The notes beneath the pieces were generated by a model, which did not search any database, was not told the DNA's origin, and was given only the letters and a program-made list of their open reading frames with translations. A stretch of 64,000 bases of DNA from Eledone cirrhosa (lineage: Eukaryota), in contig OZ024762.1 in NCBI GenBank assembly GCA_964016885.1, positions 22,692,001 to 22,756,000 of the forward strand, read 5' to 3'. This document shows, piece after piece, positions 4,628 to 63,617 of this stretch (position 1 is its first letter; each line of letters begins with the position of its first letter). The translations under genes were made by a program, and so were the position numbers.

Positions 4628-5450
4628 GTAGTAGGTGGGTTTGTTTTAGGACACTATGTCATGTTATATACATTTGGTGTTATACATACGTACTTCTTAA
4701 ATGAATCGAATATATGGAAGTATTGCTGGTTTTTAGTGGTGTTGGTGTTGTAGTAGATGGTGTTGTAGTAGGTGGGTTTGTTTTAGGACACTATGTCATG
4801 TTATATACATTTGGTGTTATACATACGTACTTCTTAAATGAATCGAATATATGGAAGTATTGCTGGTTTTTGGTGGTGTTGGTGTTGTAGTAGATGGTGT
4901 TGTAGTAGGTGGGTTTGTTTTAGGACACTATGTCATGTTATATACATTTGGTGTTATACATACGTACTTCTTAAATGAATCGAATATATGGAAGTATTGC
5001 TGGTTTTTGGTGGTGTTGGTGTTGTAGTAGATGGTGTTGTAGTAGGTGGGTTTGTTTTAGGACACTATGTCATGTTATATACATTTGGTGTTATACATAC
5101 GTACTTCTTAAATGAATCGAATATATGGAAGTATTGCTGGTTTTTGGTGGTGTTGGTGTTGTAGTAGATGGTGTTGTAGTAGGTGGGTTTGTTTTAGGAC
5201 ACTATGTCATGTTATATACATTTGGTGTTATACATACGTACTTCTTAAATGAATCGAATATATGGAATTATTGCTGGTTTTTAGTGGTGTTGGTGTTGTA
5301 GTAGATGGTGTTGTAGTAGGTGGGTTTGTTTTAGGACACTATGTCATGTTATATACATTTGGTGTTATACATACGTACTTCTTAAATGAATCGAATATAT
5401 GGATGTATTGCTGGTTTTTGGTGGTGTTGGTGTTGTAGTAGAGGGTGTTG
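4628..5450. repeat. 137-bp tandem repeat, ~6 near-identical copies
   Basis: ACACTATGTCATGTTATATACATTTGG recurs at 4651, 4788, 4925, 5062, 5199 and 5336, with a partial copy at 5718. Confidence 0.9.
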
Positions 5451-5949
5451 TAGTAGTAGCTGATGTTGTAGTAGATGGTGTTGTAGTAGTAGTTGTGCCT
5501 TAAGTCAGCAGAATTTACTAAGCACAAGTGCATTCAAATGTCCTATTTTTGTATTTAAAAAATGGCTCTTTGATTTCCTACATAGTGGCCTTACCACTTC
5601 ACTTAAAACATTGTTGTTGCTGTTGTTGTAGTAGTAGCTGGTGTTGTAGTAGCTGGTGTTGTAGTAGATGGTGCTGTAGTAGTAGTAGCTGTTGTTGTAG
5701 TAGGTGGTTTGTTTTAGGACACTATGTCATGTTATATACATTTGGTGTTATACATACGTACTTCTAATGTAGGTTACCTTACATATGCATACATAGGAAT
5801 TCACAATGTTCGTCACAGGTATGAAAATACTCTCGTGACAGGTGCAAATGTGTCCGAACACGGAAGAGCCGAACCCCCACCGTCATCGCCTCCATCTCTC
5901 TCACCCTCCCCATCTCTCTGTATTGTGAGTAAATGTGGTCCCACGTGCT

Positions 5950-7240
5950 GTCCGCATCACAACCCCGGCGAACAGAATGGAGAAGGCGTTTCCTCCGGAG
6001 GATGGTAAGGGAGATGTGCTGAAGAGCCATTCCATCTCGCGAGACTCACACCAGCGGCTACCCAGCTCAGCGCCTGTGGTGGTAAGTAGGGCGGTAGCTC
6101 TAGGATCAAGGGCACCACAAGTCACCACTGCTACAGGTAGCCTGCTCTGCACCTATGGTGGTAAGTAGGGAGGTAGCCCTAGGACCAAGGACACTAGAAG
6201 TCTCCACTGCTACAGGTAGCAAGCTCAGCACCTATGGTGGTAAGTAGGGAGGTAGCCCTAGGACCAAGGACACTAGAAGTCTCCACTGCTACAGGTAGCA
6301 AGCTCAGCACCTATGGTGGTAAGTAGGGAGGTGACCCTAGGACCAAGGACACCAGAGGTCTCCACTGCTACAGGTAGCCAGCTCTGCACCCATGGTGGTA
6401 AGTAGGGAGGTAGCCCTAGGACCAAGGACACTAGAAGTCTCCACTGCTACAGGTAGCCAGCTCAGCACCTATGGTGGTAAGTAGGGAGGTAGCCCTAGGA
6501 CCAAGGACACCAGAAGTCTCCACTGCTACAGGTAGCCAGCTCAGCACCTATGGTGGTAAGTAGGGAGGTAGCCCTAGGACCAAGGACACCAGAAGTCTCC
6601 ACTGCTACAGGTAGCCACCTCTGCACCTATGGTGGTAAGTAGGGAGGTAGCCCTAGGACCAAGGGCACCAGAGGTCTCCACTGCTACAGGTAGCCTGCTC
6701 AACACCTATGGTGGTAAGTAGGGAGGTAGCCCTAGGACCAAGGGCACCAGAGGTCTCCACTGCTACAGGTAGCCTGCTCAGCACCTATGGTGGTAAGTAG
6801 GGAGGTAGCCCTAGGGCCAAGGACACCAGAAGTCTCCCCTGTTACAGGTAGACTGCTCAGAACCTATGGTGGTAAGTAGGGAGGTAACCCTAGGGTTAAG
6901 GACACCAGAAGTCTCCACTGCTGCAGGTAGCCAGCTCAGCACCTGTGGTGGTAAGTAGGGAGGTAGCCCTATAGCCAAGGACACCAGAAGTCCCACCTGT
7001 TACAGGTAGCCTGTTCAGCACCTCTGGTGGTAAGTAGGGAGGTAACCCTAGGTTTAAGGATACCAGAAGTCTCCACTGCTACAGGTAGCCTGCTCAGCAC
7101 CTATGGTGGTAAGTAGGGAGGTAACCCTAGGGTTAAGGACACCAGAAGCCTCCACTGCCAAGGCCACAACCACAAACCTGTCGGAGGGGGAGCGACCGGT
7201 ACTTAGAGAGTTTGGCCTCCTCAGCCCGAAGTGCAACAGA
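5950..7240 (-). mobile_element. CRE-clade non-LTR retrotransposon 3' fragment (restriction-like endonuclease end) with internal tandem amplification
   Basis: Minus strand with frameshifts reads ALRAEEAKLSKYRSL/SDRFVVVALAVEASGVLNPRVTSLLTTIG ... ESREMEWLF/QHISLTILR/GNAFSIL. This fits the CRE C-terminus pattern AE..K..KY..L..F.P.AVET.G..G...E.RE..FL.QR.S.A..RGNA.SIL as I recall it. Confidence 0.75.
6062..7158. repeat. 79-bp satellite, 14 copies
   Basis: GTAAGTAGGG recurs every 79 bp from 6082 to 7109. Confidence 0.95.
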
Positions 7241-8799: not shown

Positions 8800-12425
<3,626 letters not shown>

Positions 12426-12665: not shown

Positions 12666-12709
<44 letters not shown>

Positions 12710-12769
12710 GAAGACTCTACTACCCTAAGTATTGAGTACTCTGCTGCGTTATGGTCCATCTTGTTATAT

Positions 12770-15360: not shown

Positions 15361-15417
15361 GACATCAACAACATCATTCTAATCATTGACATCATCATCA
15401 TCAACATTTACATCATC

Positions 15418-16647
15418 TACATCATAAGTAACATCCCCATCACCCTCATCATAAGTAACAACCCTATCATCCTCATCATAAGTAACATCCCCATCACCCT
15501 CATCACAAGTAACATCCCCATCACCCTCATCATAAGTAACATCCCCATCACCCTCATCATAAGTAACATCCCCATCACCCCCATTATAAGTAACATCCCC
15601 ATCACCATCATCATAAGTAACATCCCCAACACCCTCATCATAAGTAACATCCCCATCACCCTCATCATAAGTAACATCCCCATCACCCTCATCATAAGTA
15701 ACAACCCCATCACCCTCATCATAAGTAACCTCCTCATCACCCTCATCATAAGTAACATCCTCATCACCCTCATCATAAGTAACATCCCCATCACCATCAT
15801 CATAAGTAACATCCCCACCACCCTCATCATAAGTAACATCCCCATCACCCTCATCATAAGTAACAACCCCATCACCCTCATCATAAGTAACCTCCTCATC
15901 ACCCTCATCATAAGTAACCTCCTCATCACCCTCATCATAAGTAACATCCCCATCACCCTCTTCATAAGTAACCTCCTCATCACCCTCATCATAAGTAACA
16001 TCCCCATCACCCTCATCATAAGTAACATCCCCATCACCCCCATCATAAGTAACATCCCCATCACCCTCATCATAAGTAACATCCCCATCACCCTCTTCAT
16101 AAGTAACCTCCTCATCACCCTCATCATAAGTAACATCCTCATCACCCTCATCATAAGTAACATCCCCATCACCACCATCATAAGTAACATCCCCATCACC
16201 ACCATCATAAGTAACATCCCCATCACCCCCATCATAAGTAACATCCCCATCACCCTCATCATAAGTAACATCCCCATCACCCTCATCTTAAGTAACAACC
16301 CCATCACCCCCATCATAAGTAACATCCACACCACCCTCATCATAAGTAACATCCCCATCACCCTCATCATAAGTAACATCCCCATCACCCCCATTATAAG
16401 TAACATCCACACCACCCTCATCATAAGTAACATCCCCACCACCCTCATCATAAGTACCATCCCCATCACCACCATCATAAGTAACATCTCCATCACCCTC
16501 ATCATAAGTAACATCCCCATCACCCCCATCATAAGTAACATCCCCATCACCCTCATCTTAAGTAACATCCCCATCACCCTCATCATAAGTAACATCCCCA
16601 TCACCCCCATCATAAGTAACATCCCCATCACCCTCATCATAAGTAAC
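15418..16647 (+). repeat. 27-bp minisatellite (ATAAGTAACATCCCCATCACCCTCATC), left arm of a large palindrome
   Basis: Period 27, giving the ISNIPITLI pseudo-peptide. Confidence 0.95.
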
Positions 16648-16729
16648 ATCATTATTAATATTATTGATTTCTTATTTTCGCTACGAGGTGTCGCTGTTAG
16701 GGGAAAAACTGTTTTTATTTTCATTGTTA

Positions 16730-16774
<45 letters not shown>

Positions 16775-16966
16775 CACATTTATTACCTTATTATTGTTAT
16801 GATTAATGATAACATAATAATAGTAATATTAATAACAATAATAATAATAAGGTAATACATGTGATAATAATAATAATAATAATAATAAAATAACAATGAA
16901 AATAAAAACAGTTTTTCCCCTAACAGCGACACCTCGCGCGAAAATAAGAAATCAATAATATTAATA

Positions 16967-18692
16967 ATGATGTTACTTATGATGAGGGTGATGGGGATGT
17001 TACTTATGATGGGGGTGATGGGGATGTTACTTATGATGAGGGTGATGGGGTTGTTACTTATGATGGGGGTGATGGGGATGTTACTTATGATGAGGATGTT
17101 ACTTATGAAGAGGGTGATGGGGTTGTTACTTAAGATGAGGGTGATGGGGATGTTACTTAAGATGAGGGTGATGAGGAGGTTATATATGAAGAGGGTGATG
17201 GGGTTGTTACTTATGATGAGGGTGATGGGGATGTTACTTATGATGAGGGTGGTGGGGATGTTACTTATGATGAGGGTGATGGGGATGTTACTTATGATGA
17301 GGGTGATGAGGATGTTACTTATGATGAGGGTGATGGGGATGTTACTTATGATGAGGGTGATGGGGATGTTACTTATGATGGGGGTGATGGGGTTGTTACT
17401 TATGATGAGGGTGGTGGGGATGTTACTTATGATGAGGGTGATGGGGATGTTACTTATGATGAGGGTGATGGGGATGTTACTTATGATGGGGGTGATGGGG
17501 TTGTTACTTATGATGAGGGTGGTGGGGATGTTACTTATGATGAGGGTGATGGGGATGTTACTTATGATGAGGGTGATGGGGATGTTACTTATGATGAGGG
17601 TGATGGGGATGTTACTTATGATGAGGGTGATGGGGATGTTACTTATGATGGGGGAGATGGGGTTGTTACTTATGATGAGGGTGGTGGGGATGTTACTTAT
17701 GATGAGGGTGATGGGGATGTTACTTATGATGGGGGTGATGGGGTTGTTACTTATGATGAGGGTGGTGGGGATGTTACTTATGATGAGGGTGATGGGGTTG
17801 TTACTTATGAAGAGGGTGATGGGGTTGTTACTTATGATGGGGGTGATGGGGATGTTACTTATGATGAGGATGTTACTTATGAAGAGGGTGATGGGGTTGT
17901 TACTTATGATGGGGGTGATGGGGATGTTAGTTATGATGAGGGTGATGGGGATGGTTCTTATGATGAGGGTGATGGGGATGTTACTTATGATGAGGGTGAT
18001 GGGGATGTTACTTATGATGGGGGTGATGGGGTTGTTACTTATGATGAGGGTGGTGGGGATGTTACTTATGATGAGGGTGATGGGGATGTTACTTATGATG
18101 AGGGTGATGGGGATGTTACTTATGATGAGGGTGATGGGGATGTTACTTATGATGAGGGTGATGGGGATGTTACTTATGATGGGGGAGATGGGGTTGTTAC
18201 TTATGATGAGGGTGGTGGGGATGTTACTTATGATGAGGGTGATGGGGATGTTACTTATGATGGGGGTGATGGGGTTGTTACTTATGATGAGGGTGGTGGG
18301 GATGTTACTTATGATGAGGGTGATGGGGTTGTTACTTATGATGAGGGTGATGGGGTTGTTACTTATGATGAGGGTGGTGGGGATGTTACTTATGATGAGG
18401 GTGATGGGGTTGTTACTTATGAAGAGGGTGATGGGGTTGTTACTTATGATGGGGGTGATGGGGATGTTACTTATGATGAGGATGTTACTTATGAAGAGGG
18501 TGATGGGGTTGTTACTTATGATGGGGGTGATGGGGATGTTACTTATGATGATGGTGATGGGGATGGTTCTTATGATGAGGGTGATGGGGATGTTACTTAT
18601 GATGAGGGTGATGGGGATGTTACTTATGATGAGGGTGATGGGGATGGTACTTTTGATGAGGGTGATGAGGATGTTACTTATGATGAGGGTGA
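16967..18692 (-). repeat. Same 27-bp minisatellite, inverted (right arm)
   Basis: Reverse complement of the left array. The unique 16648-16800 is mirrored at 16830-16966. Confidence 0.95.
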
Positions 18693-22810: not shown

Positions 22811-23069
22811 TATTACTATTTACATACCATACATTCACTACTGTTGCTACTACTAATGCTGCTACTACTACTATTACTACTGCCACTATTAGGGCTGCTG
22901 CTGATGCTCTCGCTAATTATTATTGAATTGTATTCTGTTTTTAGTATTGTTTCGCAGTTTATAATATATATATATATATATGTAGATAAATCTACCAAGA
23001 GTTTACGGTAGTGTCCAATCCGTATGAAGAACTCAATGTATTCCGGATATCATGGAAAGCCAGACAAGG

Positions 23070-23114
23070 AATATTGAACTAGTTTCGTTGTTGTTACAAC
23101 TCATCAGCAATATT
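23070..23114 (-). ncRNA. Type I HHR (family C)
   Basis: Reverse complement reads AATATTG-CTGATGA-GTTG/CAAC-GAAA-CTAG-TT-CAATATT. Confidence 0.85.
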
Positions 23115-23676
23115 TACCTATCTACCGGCTCTTCTGGAGAATTGTAAAAGCACATATCGTTATATGCTTTTTCTATGAAAATTAGTAGTGGGCAGACTAA
23201 TTTGCATAGAGTGTGAGTACGCACCGGTTCAGCGGAGACGATAAAAACAAATAACGAAACGAAATTATTCTGGAGAATAGAGGGAAGGTGTTCCCCCGAA
23301 AATCAGTATGACTCTAAAAACCGGTTTGTCTGTGTGTTTACATACAGAATAGCTGGGCTGCTCACAGTAAAGCAACCAGTGAAAGACTTGGTACACCTAC
23401 ATATGTATACGTGTGTGTATTCATATACACACTAGTATTTCAGTATGCATATGTAGATGTACATTTTTAACTTAATTGTTTAAGCGTCAGTCATACAAAA
23501 GTGAGTTACAAACGAAACGAAATTTAATTTCGTTTCGTTATTTGTTTTTATCGTCTCCGCTGAACCGGTGCGTACTCACACTCTATGCAAATTAGTCTGC
23601 CCACTACTAATTTTCATAAAAAAGCATATAACGATATGTGCTTTTACAATTCTCCAGAAGGGCCGGTAGATAGGTA

Positions 23677-23721
23677 AATATTGCTGATGAGTTGTAACAA
23701 CAACGAAACTAGTTCAATATT
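23677..23721 (+). ncRNA. Type I HHR (family C)
   Basis: AATATTG-CTGATGA-GTTGtaacaaCAAC-GAAA-CTAG-TT-CAATATT: 7-bp stem I, palindromic ACTAGT, GUU site. Confidence 0.85.
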
Positions 23722-24143
23722 CTTTGTCTGGCTTTCTGGAGAATAGAGGGAAGGTGTTCCCCCGAAAACCAGTATGACTCTAAAAACCGGTTTGTCTGTG
23801 TGTTTACATACAGAATAGCTGGGCTGCTCACAGTAAAGCAACCAGTTAAAGACTTGGTACACCTACATATGTATACGTGTGTGTATTCATATACACACTA
23901 GTATTTCAGTATGCATATGTAGATGTACATTTTTAACTTAATTGTTTAAGCGTCAGTCATACAAAAGTGAGTTACAAACGAAACGAAATTTAATTTCGTT
24001 TCGTTATTTGTTTTTATCCTCTCCGCTGAACCGGTGCGTACTCACACTCTATGCAAATTAGTCTGCCCACTACTAATTTTCATAGAAAAAGCATATAACG
24101 ATATGTGCTTTTACAATTCTCCAGAAGGGCCGGTAGATAGGTA

Positions 24144-24188
24144 AATATTGCTGATGAGTTGTAACAACAACGAAACTAGTTCAATATT
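24144..24188 (+). ncRNA. Type I HHR (family C), second tandem copy
   Basis: Identical to 23677-23721, 467 bp downstream. Confidence 0.85.
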
Positions 24189-24476
24189 CCTTGTCTGGCT
24201 TTCTGGTGAATAGAGGGAAGGTGTTCCCCCGAAAACCAGTATGACTCTAAAAACCGGTTTGTCTGTGTGTTTACATACAGAATAGCTGGGCTGCTCACAG
24301 TAAAGCAACCAGTGAAAGACTTGGTACACCTACATATGTATACGTGTGTGTATTCATATACACACTAGTATTTCAGTATGCATATGTAGATGTACATTTT
24401 TAACTTAATTGTTTAAGCGTCAGTCATACAAAAGTGAGTTACAAACGAAACGAAATTTAATTTCGTTTCGTTATTT

Positions 24477-24528
<52 letters not shown>

Positions 24529-24882: not shown

Positions 24883-25160
24883 TCGCTCATATCTAGACAT
24901 TAACTTTTTCAAAACGATCGCGCCAAGAATTCATTCCAAAATGGCTAAAAATCGTGACGTAGTCGCGGTCAAGTTGGAAGGGGTGTGGTAGTTGCTTACG
25001 ACTGGTGGCATTCTTGCTAGATATATATAAATGAAGTAATTCCGTCTGAAAGGTCCAGGAAAAAAGAGTGCTCTATGTAGGTTACAGAGATTATTAGTTA
25101 TGTAATAAACAACATAAGATAATTATTTCAAATCCACTGTCAATAAAGAGACCAGGATTT

Positions 25161-25220
25161 TTTCATTCTGATGAATGAAAGCAATTTTGGCTGCTTTCAA
25201 GAAACCCCTGGTAAATGAAA
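25161..25220 (+). ncRNA. Type I HHR (family D)
   Basis: TTTCATT-CTGATGA-aTGAAAGC/GCTTTCAa-GAAA-CCCCTGG-TA-AATGAAA. Lies in fold-back element 25030-25247, with a relative at 52178-52365. Confidence 0.8.
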
Positions 25221-25380
25221 TAATTATCTTATGTTGTTTTTTACATAACTATATATATATATATATATATATATAGTAAATGAGTGAAGAATAACATGGA
25301 TGGCTGTATAATAGGGTTTCTATATATATATACACACATGAATGTATATATATTTGTACCTATATATATGGATATATGTT

Positions 25381-27616: not shown

Positions 27617-27620
<4 letters not shown>

Positions 27621-27807
27621 AACGAGTAGGACCCCGACGGCTGAGCTCAAGCCGTTTCGTTTTTTCTTTAGACCAGAATTAGCCGTCGTAAACGGCTTGA
27701 GCCCAGCCGTCGGGGTCCTACTCGTTCCTATTACCCACTCTACTACCCTAAGTATTGAGTACTTTGGTGCGTTATGGTCCATCTGGTTCCTTACCACATT
27801 TCCTTCG

Positions 27808-27810
<3 letters not shown>
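27617..27810 (+). mobile_element. Fold-back element family E (3' half-HHR plus tail) in (TA)n
   Basis: Arms GGAACGAGTAGGACCCCGACGGCTGAGCTCAAGCCGTTT and its inverse, then the tail TTACCCACTCTACTACCCTAAGTATTGAGTACT..CCTTCGT-(TA)n. Copies at 41091-41280, 46479-46630(-) and 50300-50430. Confidence 0.8.
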
Positions 27811-27881
<71 letters not shown>

Positions 27882-28154
27882 ATATATAGTAATAATACAA
27901 AATTTGAAGACTAAAATCCAAAGAGGGATCGATAAGGATAAATATATATCAAATATATAAGAACCGTAGAGCAAATATTAATGACGTAAATATTCGTTTT
28001 CATGAACCAAAGTATCGTCTTCCTGTCTTCCTCCGGCTGCAACGTTTTTTGAAATATTCACTTCTGCGTTTACAGATTGACTTTGGTAGTTTCAGAAAAT
28101 CCCGTTAAGAGTGAAAGCAGCGATTCTTTGCTTAAACTTTAATCTGTTATTTTA

Positions 28155-28306
<152 letters not shown>

Positions 28307-29879: not shown

Positions 29880-32468
<2,589 letters not shown>

Positions 32469-36780: not shown

Positions 36781-37043
36781 CACACATGTACAGACAAATT
36801 CACAAGTACACAAAGTTACACACACACACACACACACACACACACGCCGATATTCATTTCAATTTAACGCCAACATTTGATCCGAAGACGTTAAGAAGGT
36901 CTTCCATTGCTGTACGGATATTTGACGATAAAAAAATATCCCTACAGAAGAAAGGACTACAACAGCGATCCGATCAGTATATATATATATATACATATAT
37001 ACGATATTAAACAAATGGAAACTATATTTATAAAACCATATTT

Positions 37044-37107
37044 ATTTCATTATACATATTTCGGCGATACCATATTAAAAATATGGCATGCCTTCTTCAG
37101 ATAAAAT
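37044..37107 (-). ncRNA. Type I HHR (family B), left arm of a 171-bp inverted repeat
   Basis: Reverse complement of 37247-37310. Confidence 0.8.
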
Positions 37108-37246
37108 ACAATATATAAGCAGTTTTATAAATAATGTTGACGTACCATAAATATTGATCAACTTTCAAGTTGGTTAACTTCTTACGTGAAAGTTGATCAA
37201 TATTTATGGTACGTCAACATTATTTATAAAACTGCTTATATATTGT

Positions 37247-37310
37247 ATTTTATCTGAAGAAGGCATGCCATATTTTTAATATGGTATCGCCGAAATATGT
37301 ATAATGAAAT
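37247..37310 (+). ncRNA. Type I HHR (family B)
   Basis: ATTTTAT-CTGAAGA-aGGCATGCCATATT..AATATGGTATCGCC-GAAA-TATGTA-TA-ATGAAAT. Confidence 0.8.
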
Positions 37311-37438
37311 AAATATGGTTTTATAAATATAGTTTCCATTTGTTTAATATCGTATATCTACTCCAAAACTTGTTGAGTGCTTTATATCAGTTATAAAATA
37401 TTTACTTGTTGTAACCCAACAATTTTAAATAAAACTTT

Positions 37439-37475
<37 letters not shown>

Positions 37476-38890: not shown

Positions 38891-39253
38891 AGTAAATATA
38901 TATTATTCTGGAGGATAATGTATTAACTTCTTGTTCCAATGAGTGGTTTGTGACTGGCTCAAACAATTCAATTGGTACCTGCTATATTGCGGCTACAACT
39001 TTAATTTGGCACTACTGGTAGAAAGGTCGGACATGCTTTCCAGCGTAGTTACGTCCCTTTACCATCTGAGTTCAAATCCCGCCGAGGTTAACTTTTATTA
39101 TTAATACTACATATATATATATATATATATAAGTTAATCCAAGTAGCGGTTTTTAGACACACCGTGTTAATCTCCACTCCATTATGTATATATATATATA
39201 TATAAATAAAATAACAGGAGGCTGGACTGGTGTAAATCCTTGAAAGGTTTATT

Positions 39254-39311
39254 ATACTATGATCATTTCAATGACCGGGTTCCATATGAATCAGGTGATA
39301 TCATCAGGTAT
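39254..39311 (-). ncRNA. Type I HHR (family H), inverted copy
   Basis: Reverse complement of 39960-40017, within arm 39201-39370. Confidence 0.75.
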
Positions 39312-39959
39312 TGGAATATAACAAAGGAATATGTAAAAAGAAAATGGGTCCGAAAAATCAGAGACAGAGAGGACGACTGACCAACTAGCTGCCTTCACCT
39401 CGGCCACCGCCCTCAAAGTGATGGCAACTCAATCTACTAATGACCATCTGGTGAGGGGGCGAAGGCTTATAATGCACTACCACCTCTCTGTCAAAGAAAA
39501 AGGGGAAGAAAGAAAGGAAGAAAGAAGAAAAGAGGAAGAAAGAAGTCAGCGTAAAGGTCACACTACAGTCATTCTAGAAAACGCCGCGAAAAATGCTACT
39601 CCAAAAAATCTATATTTAACAAAGGCATATATAATGGGTGTCTGTATGGTCTAATGTGTGAGCCGAAAATTGGAACGTTAAACTTATGTTACGAGTTATG
39701 GGATGAAATTAAATTAAAAAATATTAAATTGCAAAATGATAAATTGAAAAATAAATTATTAGAGAATTAAAAGTTAAGGTAGCGAGATTTATTTAATGAA
39801 CTTACAGAGAAAGTCTTATATGAAAAAGTTAATCCCGATAAGATATCAGGATGGGATATAGAGTAAAGATTTCGATTGTGAATCCCAGCCAGCATCTTGT
39901 TGTCTCTGTCTCTGATTTTTCGGACCCATGGTTTTTACTTATTCCTTTGTTATATTCCA

Positions 39960-40017
39960 ATACCTGATGATATCACCGGATTCATATGGAACCCGGTCAT
40001 TGAAATGATCATAGTAT
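39960..40017 (+). ncRNA. Type I HHR (family H)
   Basis: ATAC-CTGATGA-..ACCGGATTC/GAACCCGGT..-GAAA-TGATCA-TA-GTAT. Tail 40071-40206, then (TA)n. Confidence 0.8.
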
Positions 40018-40504
40018 AATAAACCTTTCAAGGATTTACACCAGTCCAGCCTCCTGTTATTTTATTTATAATTAACTCCGTATTCGCAACACCAACTACA
40101 CAAACAAAGACGGTTGAACTGCACTACGTTGAGTACTCTCCACAATATTACACCAAGATTGACCATACGGAATGACCAGTTCTATCCAGTGGTGAACCAA
40201 CAAACCTATATATATATATATATGTGTGTACACACATCTATAAGTATAATAATATATAGGTATATATAGATATATAAACGTATATAATATGTGTGGCGTA
40301 GTAGTAGTAGTAGTAGTAATAGTAGTAGTAGTAGTAATAGTAGTAGTAGTAGTAATAGTAGTAGTAGTAATAGTAGTATCTGCAGCATCGTGATTATTAT
40401 GGACGCTAGTAACAGTTTCAGGTTATTGACAGCTGACTTGGATGACCTGATGTTTCTTGAAACATAAAACACAAAATTGTAAGATGGTGGAAGAAATAAC
40501 CATA

Positions 40505-41090: not shown

Positions 41091-41094
<4 letters not shown>

Positions 41095-41277
41095 AACCAG
41101 TAAGACCCCGACGGCTGAGCTCAAGCCGTTTCGACAGCTAATTCTAGAATTAGCCGTAGAAACGGCTTGAGCTCAGCCGTCGGGGTCTTACTGGTTCCTA
41201 TTACCCACTCTACTACCCTAAGTATTGAGTACTTTGGTGCGTTATGGTCCACCTGGTTCCTTACCACATTTCCTTCG

Positions 41278-41280
<3 letters not shown>
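41091..41280 (+). mobile_element. Fold-back element family E
   Basis: Near-perfect ~110-bp palindrome centred on TTCTAGAA plus the family E tail, flanked by (TA)n. Confidence 0.8.
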
Positions 41281-43766: not shown

Positions 43767-43806
<40 letters not shown>

Positions 43807-43947
43807 AGTTTATGTTGGTTGTATACCAACACCTCAGTATGCAGACTGGAGCACTCGACGAAGTTCGCATGTTGGTTTGGTTACTCAGGAGTAGTGTAAA
43901 ATAAAGTTAAATAAAAGTCAAATGATTAAAATTTAGCTTCGTTTATT

Positions 43948-46182: not shown

Positions 46183-46225
<43 letters not shown>

Positions 46226-46239
46226 ATGTTATAGAAGGA

Positions 46240-46288
46240 GCTTCTACAGGACTAGTACTGTTTCATTCAGATGAAATCCTCAGGAAGC
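46240..46288 (-). ncRNA. Type I HHR (family G), minus arm of a hairpin
   Basis: Reverse complement reads GCTTC-CTGAGGA-TTTCATCTGAAT-GAAA-CAG..CTG-TA-GAAGC. Confidence 0.75.
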
Positions 46289-46289
46289 A

Positions 46290-46338
46290 GCTTCCTGAAG
46301 ATTTCATCTGAAAGAAACAGTACTAGTCCTGTAGAAGC
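46290..46338 (+). ncRNA. Type I HHR (family G) with full stem III
   Basis: GCTTC-CTGAAGA-TTTCAtcTGAAA-GAAA-CAG tactagtc CTG-TA-GAAGC (GUA site). Confidence 0.85.
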
Positions 46339-46425
46339 TCCTTCTATAAAATAAAAAAAATTTACTCTGCCATGTATTGAGTACCTTACTTACTGTGGTT
46401 ATTCCCGACTCAACCCGGGACCTAC

Positions 46426-46482
<57 letters not shown>

Positions 46483-46626
46483 GAAGGAAATGTGGTAAGG
46501 AAGCAAGTGGACCATAACGCACCAAAGTACTCAATAGAGTGGGTAATAGGAACGAGTAGGACCCCGACGGCTGAGCTCAAGCCGTTTCGACGGCTAATTC
46601 ATTCAGCCGTCGGGGTCCTATTCGTT

Positions 46627-46681
<55 letters not shown>

Positions 46682-47173: not shown

Positions 47174-47505
47174 TTGTCTGAATCTCTGTTTTGTTCCCGT
47201 CCAAATTTGAAACTATATATATATATATATATATATAAAATATTAAAAAAATAATGAATAAAACAATGAAACAGTTCCTTATATTAAACAAAAAAAGTTC
47301 ATTATTTAACGATCGTTTCTAGGATATATATGTGTTAGAATTGGCATGCATATTCAACAGATCTATGTACAAAATTATACAAAATTATACAAACTATCAA
47401 AATTAAATATACATACCAACACATGTATACACATACATACGCATACATGGATGTGTATGTATGTGTATATATGCGTATATGTATGTGTGTATGTGTGTGT
47501 GAGTA

Positions 47506-47558
<53 letters not shown>

Positions 47559-47636
47559 TTATTATATGTGTGTGTATGTGTATATATATCTTTATATATG
47601 TGTATGTGTATGTGTGTGTATGTATGTGTGTATATA

Positions 47637-47667
<31 letters not shown>

Positions 47668-47759
47668 GTGTGTATATGTATGTATATATATATATATTTA
47701 TATGTGGGTATGTATGTGTATGTGTGTATATACATGAGTGTGTTTATATATGTGTGTAG

Positions 47760-47807
<48 letters not shown>

Positions 47808-48020
47808 TGTGAATGTATATATATATATATGTATGCGTGTATGTGTGTATATATATATATATGTGTGTATATGTGTATATGTCTATGTATTTATATGTGT
47901 ATATGTATGTGTCTCTATATGTATGCGTGTGTGTATGTGTATGTGTATTTATATGGTGTGTGTATGTATATGTATGTGTATGTATGTGTTTATGTATATG
48001 TGTATGTATATGTATGGATA

Positions 48021-48061
<41 letters not shown>

Positions 48062-48095
48062 GTATGTATATCGATGTATATTTTATATTTTACTT

Positions 48096-48136
<41 letters not shown>

Positions 48137-48731
48137 CTTGATATATTTCTTTTTTCTTTTTCTTTTCTTTTTATTTCTAAATTTATAGATACATTTATAA
48201 ATAGGCAGTCTGCTGACACCGGTGAATACTGACCTCTTCTCCCTCCCCCCACCTACTTTCTGTATCTGGATCTAAATATGTGTGGCAGTGTTTATGTGCG
48301 CGCATTAATGTCCATATGCTTATGATAATAGTATATACACATATATATGTGTGTGGGGTGTGTGTGTGTATGTGTGTTCGTGGTTGTGTGTATGTTTATG
48401 CGTATACGCGCGTGTGTGTGTGAATGTACGTATATGTGTGAGTATATGAATGTGTGTATATATTTATTTGTATATTTATATGTGTATACGTATTTTATCT
48501 GTAGATTATAAACATACAGAGACATTAGCCTTGAATTTTTGTATTTACATACATCTTTTTGGCATGCGTATGCATGTGAACATATATCTTTATGCATATC
48601 TGTGAACGAAGTTACTTACATATATACACACACCTAACTGTATAAACTTTTTGTATTTTCATCGGTCAATTTGAACTCTGTTCCCAAACAGACCTGTAAT
48701 TTTGAATTGTTGTTATTATCAATAAATATAT

Positions 48732-48885
48732 TTCATTATTTCTGAAGACGGCATATATATGTGTTGGTATGTATATTTAATTTTGATAGTTTGTATAATT
48801 TTGTATAATTTTGTACATAGATCTGTTGAATATGCATGCCAATTCTAACACATATATATCCTAGAAACGATCGTTAAATAATGAA
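48732..48885 (+). ncRNA. Type I HHR with ~115-nt stem II domain
   Basis: TTCATTATTT-CTGAAGA-..ATATATATGTGTTGG..CTAACACATATATAT..-GAAA-CGATCG-TT-AAATAATGAA, with a perfect 10-bp stem I. Confidence 0.8.
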
Positions 48886-49079
48886 CTTTTTTTGTTTAAT
48901 ATAAGGAACTGTTTCATTGTTTTATTCATTATTTTTTTAATATTTTATCTTGACTCTGTATTCCGTTTATCTTTCACCGAAAGTGATTTTTCATTGCATC
49001 TCTTCTTTCCATGATATCCGGATTACATTGAGTTCTTCATACGGATTGGACACTACCGTAAACTCTTGGTAGATTTATC

Positions 49080-49116
<37 letters not shown>

Positions 49117-49275
49117 CGTTTCTGAATTTGTTTAGCAAGATTCTTTATCTGAAATCGTGTGTTGAAACCGATATTGTTATACTTTGGGAGGGTCATGTTG
49201 CCAATAAGAAACACACGCACCATTTGGCGTAGGACAGAAGAAAGGAAAGGCACAGAAACAAAGAAAGGAATCCCC

Positions 49276-49320
49276 AGTCACTGAAGAGGTCACAGAGTGT
49301 GTGGCGAAAGGACTATGACT
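49276..49320 (+). ncRNA. Minimal type I HHR
   Basis: AGTCA-CTGAAGA-gGTCACA/TGTGGC-GAAA-GGAC-TA-TGACT. Lies between ~52-bp inverted arms at 49170-49222 and 49430-49481. Confidence 0.75.
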
Positions 49321-49875
49321 ATATATAAACAACTATCTGGTTGTGGAACCAACCAACCAGAAATTTATAACTTTGTAGATTTGTAAATTTATAAATTTAT
49401 AAATATATAATAAATTGAAGTGAAAGCATCTGGTGCGTGTGTTTCTTATTGGCAACATGACCCTCCCAAAGTATAACAATATATATATATATATATATAT
49501 AGCCTAATGGATTCCCTTGTAGTACGTACAATCTGGACACACTTACACACACCTTGGTGTTGTGACAATACTATACATCATTGCACCTCTTTTATTATTG
49601 AACATTCACGTGACTTCTACCGACCAATCAAAATTATAGTGCTTATTCACGTGACATTCAACCACCAAACAAATCACGGGCGCTCTATCTCAAAATTATT
49701 TTTGAAAACCATTTGAAATGCGCAACCGGTAAAAGACTTAAAACTTAAAACTAACACAGAATACTAACCAATACTTATTACTAATTTATACTTATTCCTA
49801 ATTAAACTATTTTTCACTGGAAAACATCTGTCAGCATTTTCTTTTCCTTTTTACTAATATATATATATATATGTC

Positions 49876-50252: not shown

Positions 50253-50297
<45 letters not shown>

Positions 50298-50689
50298 TTA
50301 GGAACCAGTAAGACCCCGACAGATGAGCGGGGTCTTACTGGTTCCTATTACCCACTCTACTACCCCAAGTATTGAGTACTTTGGTGCGTTATGGTCCACC
50401 TGGTTCCTTACCACATTTCCTTCGTTACATATGTATTTATATATATAGGTTTATACCTAAAATAGCCATGTTACCTGGTACACGTGCTTTTGTCAGTAAA
50501 CTTACACTTTATCAATTCTACATTACTATATATATACCTATACCTAAAATAGCCATGTTACCTGGTACACGTGCTTTTGTCAGTAAACTTACACATTATA
50601 AATTCTATACTGTTATACACACCGGACAACGTCACACAATACCACTTCACGTTTATCATCGTTTACAGTTTATTTACCTTCACTTACAA

Positions 50690-52177: not shown

Positions 52178-52365
52178 AATGAAGTAATTCCATCGGAAAA
52201 GTCCAGGAAAAAAGAGTGCTCTATGTAGGCAACAGAGCTTAATTATTATTATTATGTAATAAACAACATAAGGCAATTATTCCATTTACCAGTGGTTTCT
52301 TTTGCTTTTAAGAAACCACTGGTAAATGGAATAATTGCCTTATGTTGTTTATTACATAATAATAA
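52178..52365 (-). mobile_element. Fold-back remnant of HHR family D (3' half-HHR plus tail)
   Basis: Palindrome ~52245-52365 with GAAACCACTGGTAAATGG. Its tail is homologous to 25030-25095. Confidence 0.75.
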
Positions 52366-52461
52366 TATATATATATATATATATTATAAGGACAGATTAA
52401 AGTTTAAGCAAAGAAGCGCTGCTTTCACCCATAAGGGGATTTTAGTCTTCACATCTATTAT

Positions 52462-52520
<59 letters not shown>

Positions 52521-61367: not shown

Positions 61368-63101
61368 AGGGTCGTGGGGAAAGAGTCCTCAAACACTTCA
61401 TCCAGCGAGTCCTGTCAGAAGCAACCGTCTCTACTTGATCCGGCTGGATCTCCAAACGTGACCTGCCAAGCTCATGGATGTTATCCAACAACTTTGCTTC
61501 GTATCTAGCCTTGGCTCTCTTGCCGGCTGGTTTTGCCCGTAAAATCAGTCCACTGATACTTTCCTGAGACTCCCAGATCTTCGAGCTACAAATCTGCACA
61601 GTGATTCTTTCCTGAGACATTCTAACATCATTCCCATAGTATCGGAGCTGTGATCTCTTAATTTGGAAACGGAGCGGCTCTACCTAGAGTGTTTCTCTGA
61701 TGTCTGAGCTACAAATTTGTCCAGTGATTCTTTCCTGAGACATTCTAACATCATTCCCATAGTATCGGAGCTGTGATCTCTTAATTTGGAAACGGAGCGG
61801 CTCTACCTGGAGTGTTTCTCTGATGTCTGAGCTACAAATTTGTCCAGTGATTCTTGCCTGAAACATTCTAACCCCACACCCATAGTATCTGGGCTGTGAT
61901 CTCTCAATTCGGAAAGGTAGCGGCTCTACTTGGAGTGACTCTCTGATCTCAGAGCTACAAATTTGTCCAGTGATTCTTGCCTGAAACATTCTAACCCCAC
62001 ACCCATAGTATCTGGGCTGTGATCTCTCAATTCGGAAAGGTAGCGGCTCTACCTGGAGTGACTCTCTGATCTCAGAGCTACAAATTTGTCCAGTGATTCT
62101 TGCCTGAAACATTCTAACCACACACCCATAGTATCTGGGCTGTGATCTCTCAATTCGGAAAGGTAGCGGCTTTACCTGGAGTGACTCTCTGATCTCAGAG
62201 CTACAAATATGTCCAGTGATTCTTTCCTGAGACATTCTAACCCCACACCCATAGTATCTGGGCTGTGATCTCTCAATTCGGAAAGGTAGCGGCTCTACCT
62301 GGAGTGACTCTCTGATCTCAGAGCTACAAATATGTCCAGTGATTCTTTCCTGAGACATTCTAACCCCACACCCATAGTATCTGGGCTGTGATCTCTCAAT
62401 TCGGAAAGGTAGCGGCTCTACCTGGAGTGACTCTCTGATCTCAGAGCTACAAATATGTCCAGTGATTCTTTCCTGAGACATTCTAACCCCACACCCATAG
62501 TATCTGGGCTGTGATCTCTCAATTCGGAAAGGTAGCGGCTCTACCTGGAGTGACTCTCTGATCTCAGAGCTACAAATATGTCCAGTGATTCTTTCCTGAG
62601 ACATTCTAACCCCACACCCATAGTATCTGGGCTGTGATCTCTCAATTCAGAAAGGTAGCGGCTTTACCTGGAGTGACTCTCTGATCTCAGAGCTACAAAT
62701 ATGTCCAGTGATTCTTTCCTGAGACATTCTAACCCCACACCCATAGTATCTGGGCTGTGATCTCTTAATTTGGAAACGGAGCGGCTCTACCTAGAATGTT
62801 TCTCTGATGTCTGAGCTACAAATTTGTCCAGTGATTCTTGCCTGAGACATTCTAACCCCACACCCATAGTATCTGGGCTGTGATCTCTCAATTCGGAAAG
62901 GTAGCGGCTCTACTTGGAGTGACTCTCTGATCTCAGAGCTACAAATATGTCCAGTGATTCTTTTCTGAGACATTCTAACCCCACACCCATAGTATCTGGG
63001 CTGTGATCTCTCAATTCGGAAAGGTAGCGGCTCTACTTGGAGTGACTCTCTGATCTCAGAGCTACAAATATGTCCAGTGATTCTTTCCTGAGACATTCTA
63101 A
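61365..63101 (-). mobile_element. RTE-clade LINE 3' fragment containing a 123-bp (41-codon) tandem array, ~12.5 copies
   Basis: The unit translates IRESLQVEPLPFRIERSQPRYYGCGVRMSQERIT (RTE motif IE..QLRW.GHV.RM..ER), followed by AKPAGKR..LDNIHELGRSRL..DRTRW..LSPRPS. CCTGA(G/A)A recurs from 61611 to 63087 at period 123. Confidence 0.85.
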
Positions 63102-63154
63102 TCGCAATCCAAGCTAATGTTTGAAGGAAATGAGCGGCATTGAGTAAATAGATA

Positions 63155-63617
63155 CTATGACATGTGGTTAGAATGTCTCAGGAAAGAATCACTGGATAGA
63201 TTTGTAGCTCGGAGTTTAGAGAGTCACTCCAGGTAGAGTCACTACTTCTCTGAATTAAGAGATCACATCTCCGAAACTATGGGTATGTGGTTAGAATGTC
63301 TTAGGTACGAATCGCTGGATAGATTTGTAGTTAGGAGATCAAATAATCCCTCCAGGTAGAGCTGCTACTTATCCGAATTGAGAGATCACAGCTCCGGTGC
63401 TATGGGCATGTGATTAGAATGTCTCAGGAAAAAAGTCACAGGATAGATTTGTAGCATGGATATCAGAGATTCATTCCAGGTAGAGCTGCTACTTTGTTAC
63501 TTCTCCGAATTGAGAGATCACAGCTCCAATACTATGGACATGTGGTTAGAATGTCTCAGGAAAGAATATCTGGATTGAGAGATCACAGCTTCGATACCAT
63601 TGGCATGTGTTTAGAAT
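63155..63617 (+). repeat. Diverged inverted copies (~3.7) of the 123-bp RTE-derived unit
   Basis: GTTAGAATGTCTCAGGAAAGAATC repeats. Translates LLRIERSQLQYYGHVVRMSQERI. Confidence 0.85.

Follow-up and report, generated by a model that had tools for sequence, protein, structure and literature searches.

Locus 1 (22981-24479) joins the end of one ribozyme-bearing repeat family, B, to the body of another, C. We consider, with moderate confidence, that it is one hybrid insertion, in which reverse transcription of the top strand began on a family-B RNA and switched to a family-C RNA, a two-RNA reading drawn from this one locus as assembled. The feature is real, an ordinary family-B tail together with a probably rare two-family hybrid insertion. 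Its parts are of known kinds, namely non-autonomous Penelope-like elements (PLEs) or retrozymes, their tails, and twin priming. Throughout, the window denotes the whole stretch of DNA analysed, 64,000 nt.

Structure of the hybrid locus

Locus 1 consists, in order, of (TA)n, a reversed B tail, a 213-nt inverted C arm, 2.6 sense copies of C and (TA)n again. The left (TA)n run (22964-22981) is the likely insertion target, and the tail fragment, the last 79 nt of the B tail (22981-23059, minus strand), reads into it. This fragment has the TTGAGTTC motif and the terminal hairpin and lacks the ACTC arm. The inverted C arm (23055-23267, minus strand) equals monomer positions 23525-23736 and contains a type I hammerhead core at 23107-23083. 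It is followed by the C tandem (23268-24479, plus strand), 2.6 copies of a 467-nt monomer with cores at 23684-23708 and 24151-24175, which ends in GTGAGTTAC, a hairpin and the right (TA)n run (24480-24526, from (TA)n mapping). Tail and arm overlap by a 5-nt microhomology, CTTTC (23055-23059, minus strand), common to the B tail and the C monomer and taken here as the putative switch point.

The C hammerhead combines the core CTGATGA...GAAA with a 7-bp stem I, a 5-bp stem II and a palindromic ACTAGT stem III. It resembles the Rfam model Hammerhead_HH9 with E values of 8e-8 to 2e-7 (1.7e-7 at 23054-23125, minus strand), all below the gathering score, at which the Rfam scan returned no match. Family C contains two full units of 466-467 nt, each with a type I hammerhead, and a Pfam search of its reading frames returned no match. 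The four C segments carry eight scattered private changes in about 1430 nt. The inverted arm shares none of those of monomer 1 or monomer 2, and thus fits one template; judged from the sequence, the differences are such as might be expected from a single multimer or circle copied once.

The first-pass annotation had reported that two unrelated ribozyme bodies share a nearly identical 79-nt tail, and BLAST within the 64-kb window bears out the match: the reverse complement of 22981-23059 agrees with 49005-49083 at 78 of 79 positions (E 9e-36), with an abrupt loss of identity at the 5' edge and entry into (TA)n at the 3' edge. Both bodies are present, each with a hammerhead-like fold, and local alignment against 200 shuffles (p 0.23 and 0.58) agrees that they are unrelated. 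The distances it gave from body to tail are also correct, the C hammerhead almost adjoining one copy and the other copy following the hammerhead at 48732 after about 120 nt. That TTGAGTTCT occurs in both copies is true and trivial, since both copies are the same sequence. Three features go beyond that description. The first 5 nt of the 79-mer, CTTTC, also occur in the C monomer; the C ribozyme next to it lies in an inverted arm, attached to a tandem of 2.6 copies; and family B has a longer extension, of 135 nt, to which the 79-mer contributes only a part.

Several other identities for the shared segment were rejected. All three reading frames from hammerhead through tail are broken in both contexts, which rules out a coding remnant spanning them. 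The 79-mer as a stable fold by itself was likewise ruled out (z about -1), and 43767-43812, considered as a diverged third copy, is mostly TA run, the tail there being that of another family. Exact-pattern scans of metagenome contigs found neither the tail nor the C core (0 matches each).

The window has 33% GC, an animal-type composition and 43% of its length masked as simple repeats, with many short elements within (TA)n runs and 27 loose matches to a hammerhead core; some of its SINE-like repeats may resemble ones from octopus. It also contains minisatellite arrays with 137-, 79- and 27-nt units (4635-5765, 6059-7158 and 15366-17920), the 27-nt array flipping orientation midway. A 123-nt tandem array at 61568-63574 includes an inverted diverged block and an open frame of 320 codons, its weak Pfam matches being probably repeat artefacts. 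An 80-nt element at 52385-52464 resembles just the two ends of a 270-nt element (27889-28158) joined together.

The shared segment as the end of family B

The body of family B (48500-48948, plus strand; 5' limit not fixed) carries a long-stem-II hammerhead recognised by inspection and folding (stem I 48732-48886, core 48742-48867, plus strand), with a 10-bp stem I, a stem II of about 115 nt (fold z -5.6) and a palindromic ACGATCGT stem III. An Rfam search of the family returned no hammerhead match; the ribozyme (stem II region 48749-48863) is thus invisible to Rfam and is high-copy in the sequencing runs. Some reads omit 73 nt of stem II (48777-48851), and about 30% of X24 reads have A at position 48875, where the cut is predicted. 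The inverted arm of the B element (47238-47429, minus strand) equals about 48754-48948, starts in (TA)n at the short end and has no tail. About 1 kb of mixed GT/AT microsatellite (47430-48500) separates the two arms. A look-up of RNA data sets containing the family-B stretch listed none.

Public sequencing runs were compared with 48500-49090. Those with data were X1, X2 and X24, of which X24 is reduced-representation data; X21 gave 0 reads. Two ends of family B emerged, about 135 nt apart. Many copies stop at the short end, 48948, where 432 X24 reads, 7 X1 contigs and 2 X2 contigs end into (AT)n, and the inverted arm begins at exactly this position. The long end, 49083, meets a (TA)n run (49083-49114, from (TA)n mapping). 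Between them lies the tail (48949-49083, plus strand), a 56-nt linker followed by the shared 79 nt. One 169-nt X2 contig covers 48919-49087 with zero differences. Depth in X2 is 43.4 across linker and tail alike, up to 49039 (about 106 for the contig ending at 48948), and in X24 it is continuous over 48920-49090 (about 880-1500). Body, linker and tail are thus spanned together by both reads and contigs, which shows the tail to be native to B. The 79-mer is the last 79 nt of the family's own extension of about 135 nt, not a free module. The pair of ends fits a Penelope-like "tail".

The only mismatch in the 79-mer, T at 49023 and A at locus 1, coincides with a polymorphism, A at 49023 being a common family-B allele (559 of 1334 X24 reads, 42%). 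Linker positions 48951-48965 are predicted to pair with 49019-49035. With the A allele this pairing reaches -21.5 kcal/mol, a value that 27 of 1500 random 61-mers equal (moderately unusual); with the T allele it is weak, 164 of 1500 doing as well. As the predicted pairing joins the linker to the first half of the 79-mer, the copy at locus 1 appears severed inside a B hairpin.

Tails and a shared motif across the window

Ten two-armed elements of eight families were picked by eye, and in all ten a short end stands opposite a long one, the tails measuring 60-140 nt. Elements of this build lie in TA runs at 36994-37441, 39205-40206, 46214-46426, 30088-30465, 25027-25249, 52179-52364, 27619-27808, 41093-41278 and 49115-49478. 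Within the window, tails are family-specific apart from short motifs. When the 24 terminal 45-mers of 12 hand-picked elements were compared, the only cross-family match was that between the long end of B and the left end of locus 1, and 4 of the 24 matched nothing else.

The exception is a motif resembling TTGAGTTC, which sits 50-78 nt from the long end in unrelated tails. With at most one mismatch it occurs in 4 of 8 other families, a number attained in 0 of 5000 shuffles (mean 0.23), and with at most two in 6 of 8 (mean 2.25; p 0.005), families H and J requiring three. Tails with a TTGAGT(A/G/T)C-like motif, often with ACTC just after the short end, are those at 37361-37441, 40067-40206, 46363-46426 and 27729-27808, at 30088-30176 and 43803-43898 on the minus strand, and the B tail itself (48946-49082 in this comparison). 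In 6 of 9 tails ACTC is present among the first 16 nt (mean of shuffles 0.76, with 0 of 5000 as high), a pattern chosen after looking, and it is able to pair with GAGT in several predicted folds. ACUC...GAGU may therefore be a recognition stem common to these families, its base marking the short start site, and a candidate enzyme-binding signal.

One hairpin family also shows short and long ends and the tail motif (27619-27808, 41093-41278, 46481-46628, 50294-50425 and 12707-12764). Its member at 12707-12764 is a solo tail fragment between TA runs, and a pattern search of 27619-27808 and its relatives gave no hammerhead core.

The junction and a proposed mechanism

The CTTTC overlap maps to positions 23732-23736 of the C monomer, and the sense arm begins at 23734. 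In template coordinates, the inverted arm abuts the 5' end of the sense arm, so that the two divide the C template almost exactly; breakpoints within 3 nt of each other would arise by chance in about 7 of 467 cases (arithmetic estimate). The overlap is 5 nt at the second priming site, and there is none at the inversion junction, 23267/23268. Microhomology of at least 5 nt was found at 324 of 53705 random C/B junctions. Abutting arms and microhomology at the second primer define twin priming in LINE-1 (PMC2912911; 10.1101/2024.08.27.596794). A stop hotspot at the base of the hammerhead could produce the same coincidence of breakpoints without twin priming.

Relative to the predicted ribozyme cuts, the join is displaced downstream by 18-22 nt in C and by 130-134 nt in B. 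It coincides with neither of them, and ligation of ribozyme cleavage products was rejected on that ground. Guidance of the switch by pairing of C RNA with the B tail was rejected as well: 159 of 467 C positions, and 35% of 3000 random 30-mers, equal its -10.7 kcal/mol.

A sequence of five steps would account for the locus. The endonuclease of an autonomous element would nick both strands of a (TA)n run. One strand would prime on the 3' end of a C RNA (24479) and copy 2.6 monomers of a multimer or circle, halting at monomer position 23734, just 3' of hammerhead stem I. The other strand would prime on a B RNA bound alongside, at its long start site, and, after 74-79 bases, jump through the CTTTC overlap onto the C RNA. 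In this jump the short B cDNA, whose last bases are GAAAG, would pair with CUUUC in the part of the C RNA not yet copied, next to the end of the first cDNA, and 213 nt of C RNA would be copied from it. Joining of the two cDNAs would complete the insertion. The arrangement itself, both junctions, B's ownership of the tail and the family-specificity of tails within the window are shown; this order of events, the nature of the B piece as nascent cDNA and the rarity of the join are what we infer. The earlier suggestion of a reverse transcriptase that begins with one RNA and changes template to a second agrees with the 5-nt microhomology and the twin-priming geometry.

A Penelope-like protein of the green anole cuts and extends both strands, uses two start sites and is predicted to form a dimer (PMC11167929), and template jumps have been proposed for rotifer PLEs (PMC3846280). 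In the window, a family-D copy (11318-11542) has the geometry of locus 1 within one family, its left arm being an inverted tail alone (about 65 nt; 11318-11390); because such a tail-only arm exists, very short top-strand products do occur. None of the 71 window ORFs scanned (71/71) contains a reverse transcriptase or GIY-YIG domain. An autonomous partner within the window was accordingly rejected, no ORF being RT-like and the only Pfam matches falling on a tandem repeat.

Frequency of the join and alternative origins

A B tail could instead have been present before C arrived. A short B copy or solo B tail would already have lain in the TA run, and C would have inserted by twin priming with the genomic B end, cut or resected, as its second primer, the rest of B being lost. 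Such an origin would explain the microhomology just as well, and the abutting arms too; nesting of elements in TA runs is seen throughout the window, and the solo tail fragment of another family at 12707-12764 gives an example of the proposed target. It would, however, need the DNA to be cut or resected a second time at a site other than TA, yet every one of the 12 curated elements has its two ends within TA runs. The right flank has no B remnant, only matches of 13-24 nt at E 0.02-0.06. The fragment has no private change, its single difference being the 42% allele, and only 849 of 7660 X24 reads are at least 99% alike to the 48500-49090 copy, so the B fragment seems as young as the C insertion. 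We regard this origin as unlikely, with a small but real share of the probability.

The remaining accounts depend in part on how often the join occurs. Depth in X24 is 1006 at 49003 and 1090 at 49009, which makes a net gain of 84 in 1090 reads (about 8% of tail reads); allowing for reads that end there, the step at the junction is estimated at no more than about a tenth of X24 tail reads. The rise belongs to a gradual climb from 833 (48996) to 1334 (49023), with many tail-bearing reads lacking the linker; scattered 5' truncations or divergence of the linker may account for this climb. X2 has no step at the junction, and no loose end at 49004-49010 is among the 18 listed, where the smallest X24 entry holds 252 reads. 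A low-frequency recurrent C/B join elsewhere is possible, and a single-locus chimera is the likeliest state of the pairing.

It is improbable, on this evidence, that C body and B tail form an amplified chimeric subfamily, or that tails are exchangeable mobilisation modules comparable to those of SINEs, as the first-pass annotation proposed. The fragment does retain the motif and the terminal hairpin, a similar motif in unrelated tails means that one enzyme may serve several families, and X24 tail depth exceeds linker depth. Nevertheless, the tail is family B's own end, and the 79-mer is cut mid-loop without its 5' arm. C gives no substitute for the missing ACTC arm, 159 of 467 monomer positions pairing with the tail as well as the observed one. 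The other repeated families examined keep their own tails (one cross-family pair among 24 termini), and the sequencing runs show no step in X2 and at most the small one in X24. C appears to have a motif-bearing end of its own, a weak likeness with two mismatches 46 nt from the end, and the coincidence of the junction with the start of the sense arm is left unexplained. In the window and the runs compared, no complete 3' module was found on many copies of two unrelated bodies; at locus 1 it is incomplete.

Very improbable, finally, are a rearrangement after insertion (microhomology-mediated deletion or recombination of neighbouring B and C), an assembly chimera, and a single long pLTR of which B and C would both be parts. 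Penelope copies often show microhomology-mediated deletions (PMC3846280), and the junction is taken from the assembly, but these accounts give the breakpoint no reason to match the start of the sense arm, an arm lacking monomer 1's private changes is not a fold-back of that monomer, and the 467-nt monomer repeats without any B sequence, B and C being unrelated.

Implications

The hybrid insertion favoured here bears on how PLEs make inverted one-tailed insertions, which is still an open question. A natural insertion with ends from two families would demonstrate separate priming of the strands and the use of one enzyme by unrelated families. More speculatively, and in our view rather doubtfully, one PLE enzyme dimer might routinely load two RNAs, one per strand, via an ACUC...GAGU stem; retrozyme circles such as C would then borrow their second start site in trans, a source of new ribozyme/tail combinations and families. 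Should the tail motif hold across the genome, it would offer a binding signal that could be tried in the in vitro assay already established, and a means of pairing retrozymes with the autonomous elements that serve them. On the host, a lone rare chimera within repetitive DNA would have little effect.

Comparison with known systems

SINEs share 3' ends with their partner LINEs, the 3' signal recruiting the enzyme in trans. The shared tail motif described here may recruit an enzyme similarly; however, SINE tails are fixed family-wide, whereas the C/B pairing appears rare and its tail is truncated. Searches by title and abstract opening, in a collection with few subscription papers, gave no cross-family PLE chimera and no ACUC...GAGU tail motif. 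PMC3846280 reports no cross-mobilisation, but that concerns its EN+ and EN- types.

Twin priming, or "twin priming and switching", in LINE-1 resembles locus 1 in that an inverted 5' arm abuts the sense arm with microhomology at the second site, and an occasional extra switch, or two RNAs in one insertion, is also described (PMC2912911; 10.1101/2024.08.27.596794). The enzyme class differs, locus 1 has a TA target and lacks poly(A), and its second primer ends in the tail of another element, not in plain target DNA. U6/LINE-1 and other chimeric retrocopies likewise fuse two RNAs, one of which supplies the start site (PMC4476161; PMC6789731; PMC2104539). RNA ligation, as in PMC6789731, would predict a join at ribozyme cut sites, in contrast to the join seen here.

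PLEs have a pseudo-LTR (pLTR), an inverted arm and an optional tail (PMC8557442; PMC3846280; PMC11167929). Like the elements described here, they show type I hammerheads with a palindromic stem III and partial tandems, as well as inverted 5'-truncated arms, AT-rich targets and an extension at only one end that matches two start sites. Differences are the lack of an ORF here and the longer tails (60-140 nt against 30-40 nt published); moreover, the tailed end of locus 1 derives from another family. Families B and C have these marks of non-autonomous PLEs: a type I hammerhead with a small palindromic helix III in both (C below the gathering score, B by inspection), a partial tandem or inverted arm (2.6 copies and a 213-nt arm in C; 47238-47429 in B), and a tail at one end only (B ends 48948 and 49083).

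Animal non-LTR retrozymes have been proposed to be non-autonomous PLE derivatives (PMC7229834; bioRxiv 10.64898/2026.07.22.740005). Like family C with its 467-nt units, they are low-GC tandems in which every unit carries a type I hammerhead and none encodes a protein. In the parts consulted of these accounts, inverted arms, tails, TA targeting and cross-family joins are not described. On its sequence, family C would belong with the non-LTR retrozymes, with tandem non-coding units that each carry a type I hammerhead.
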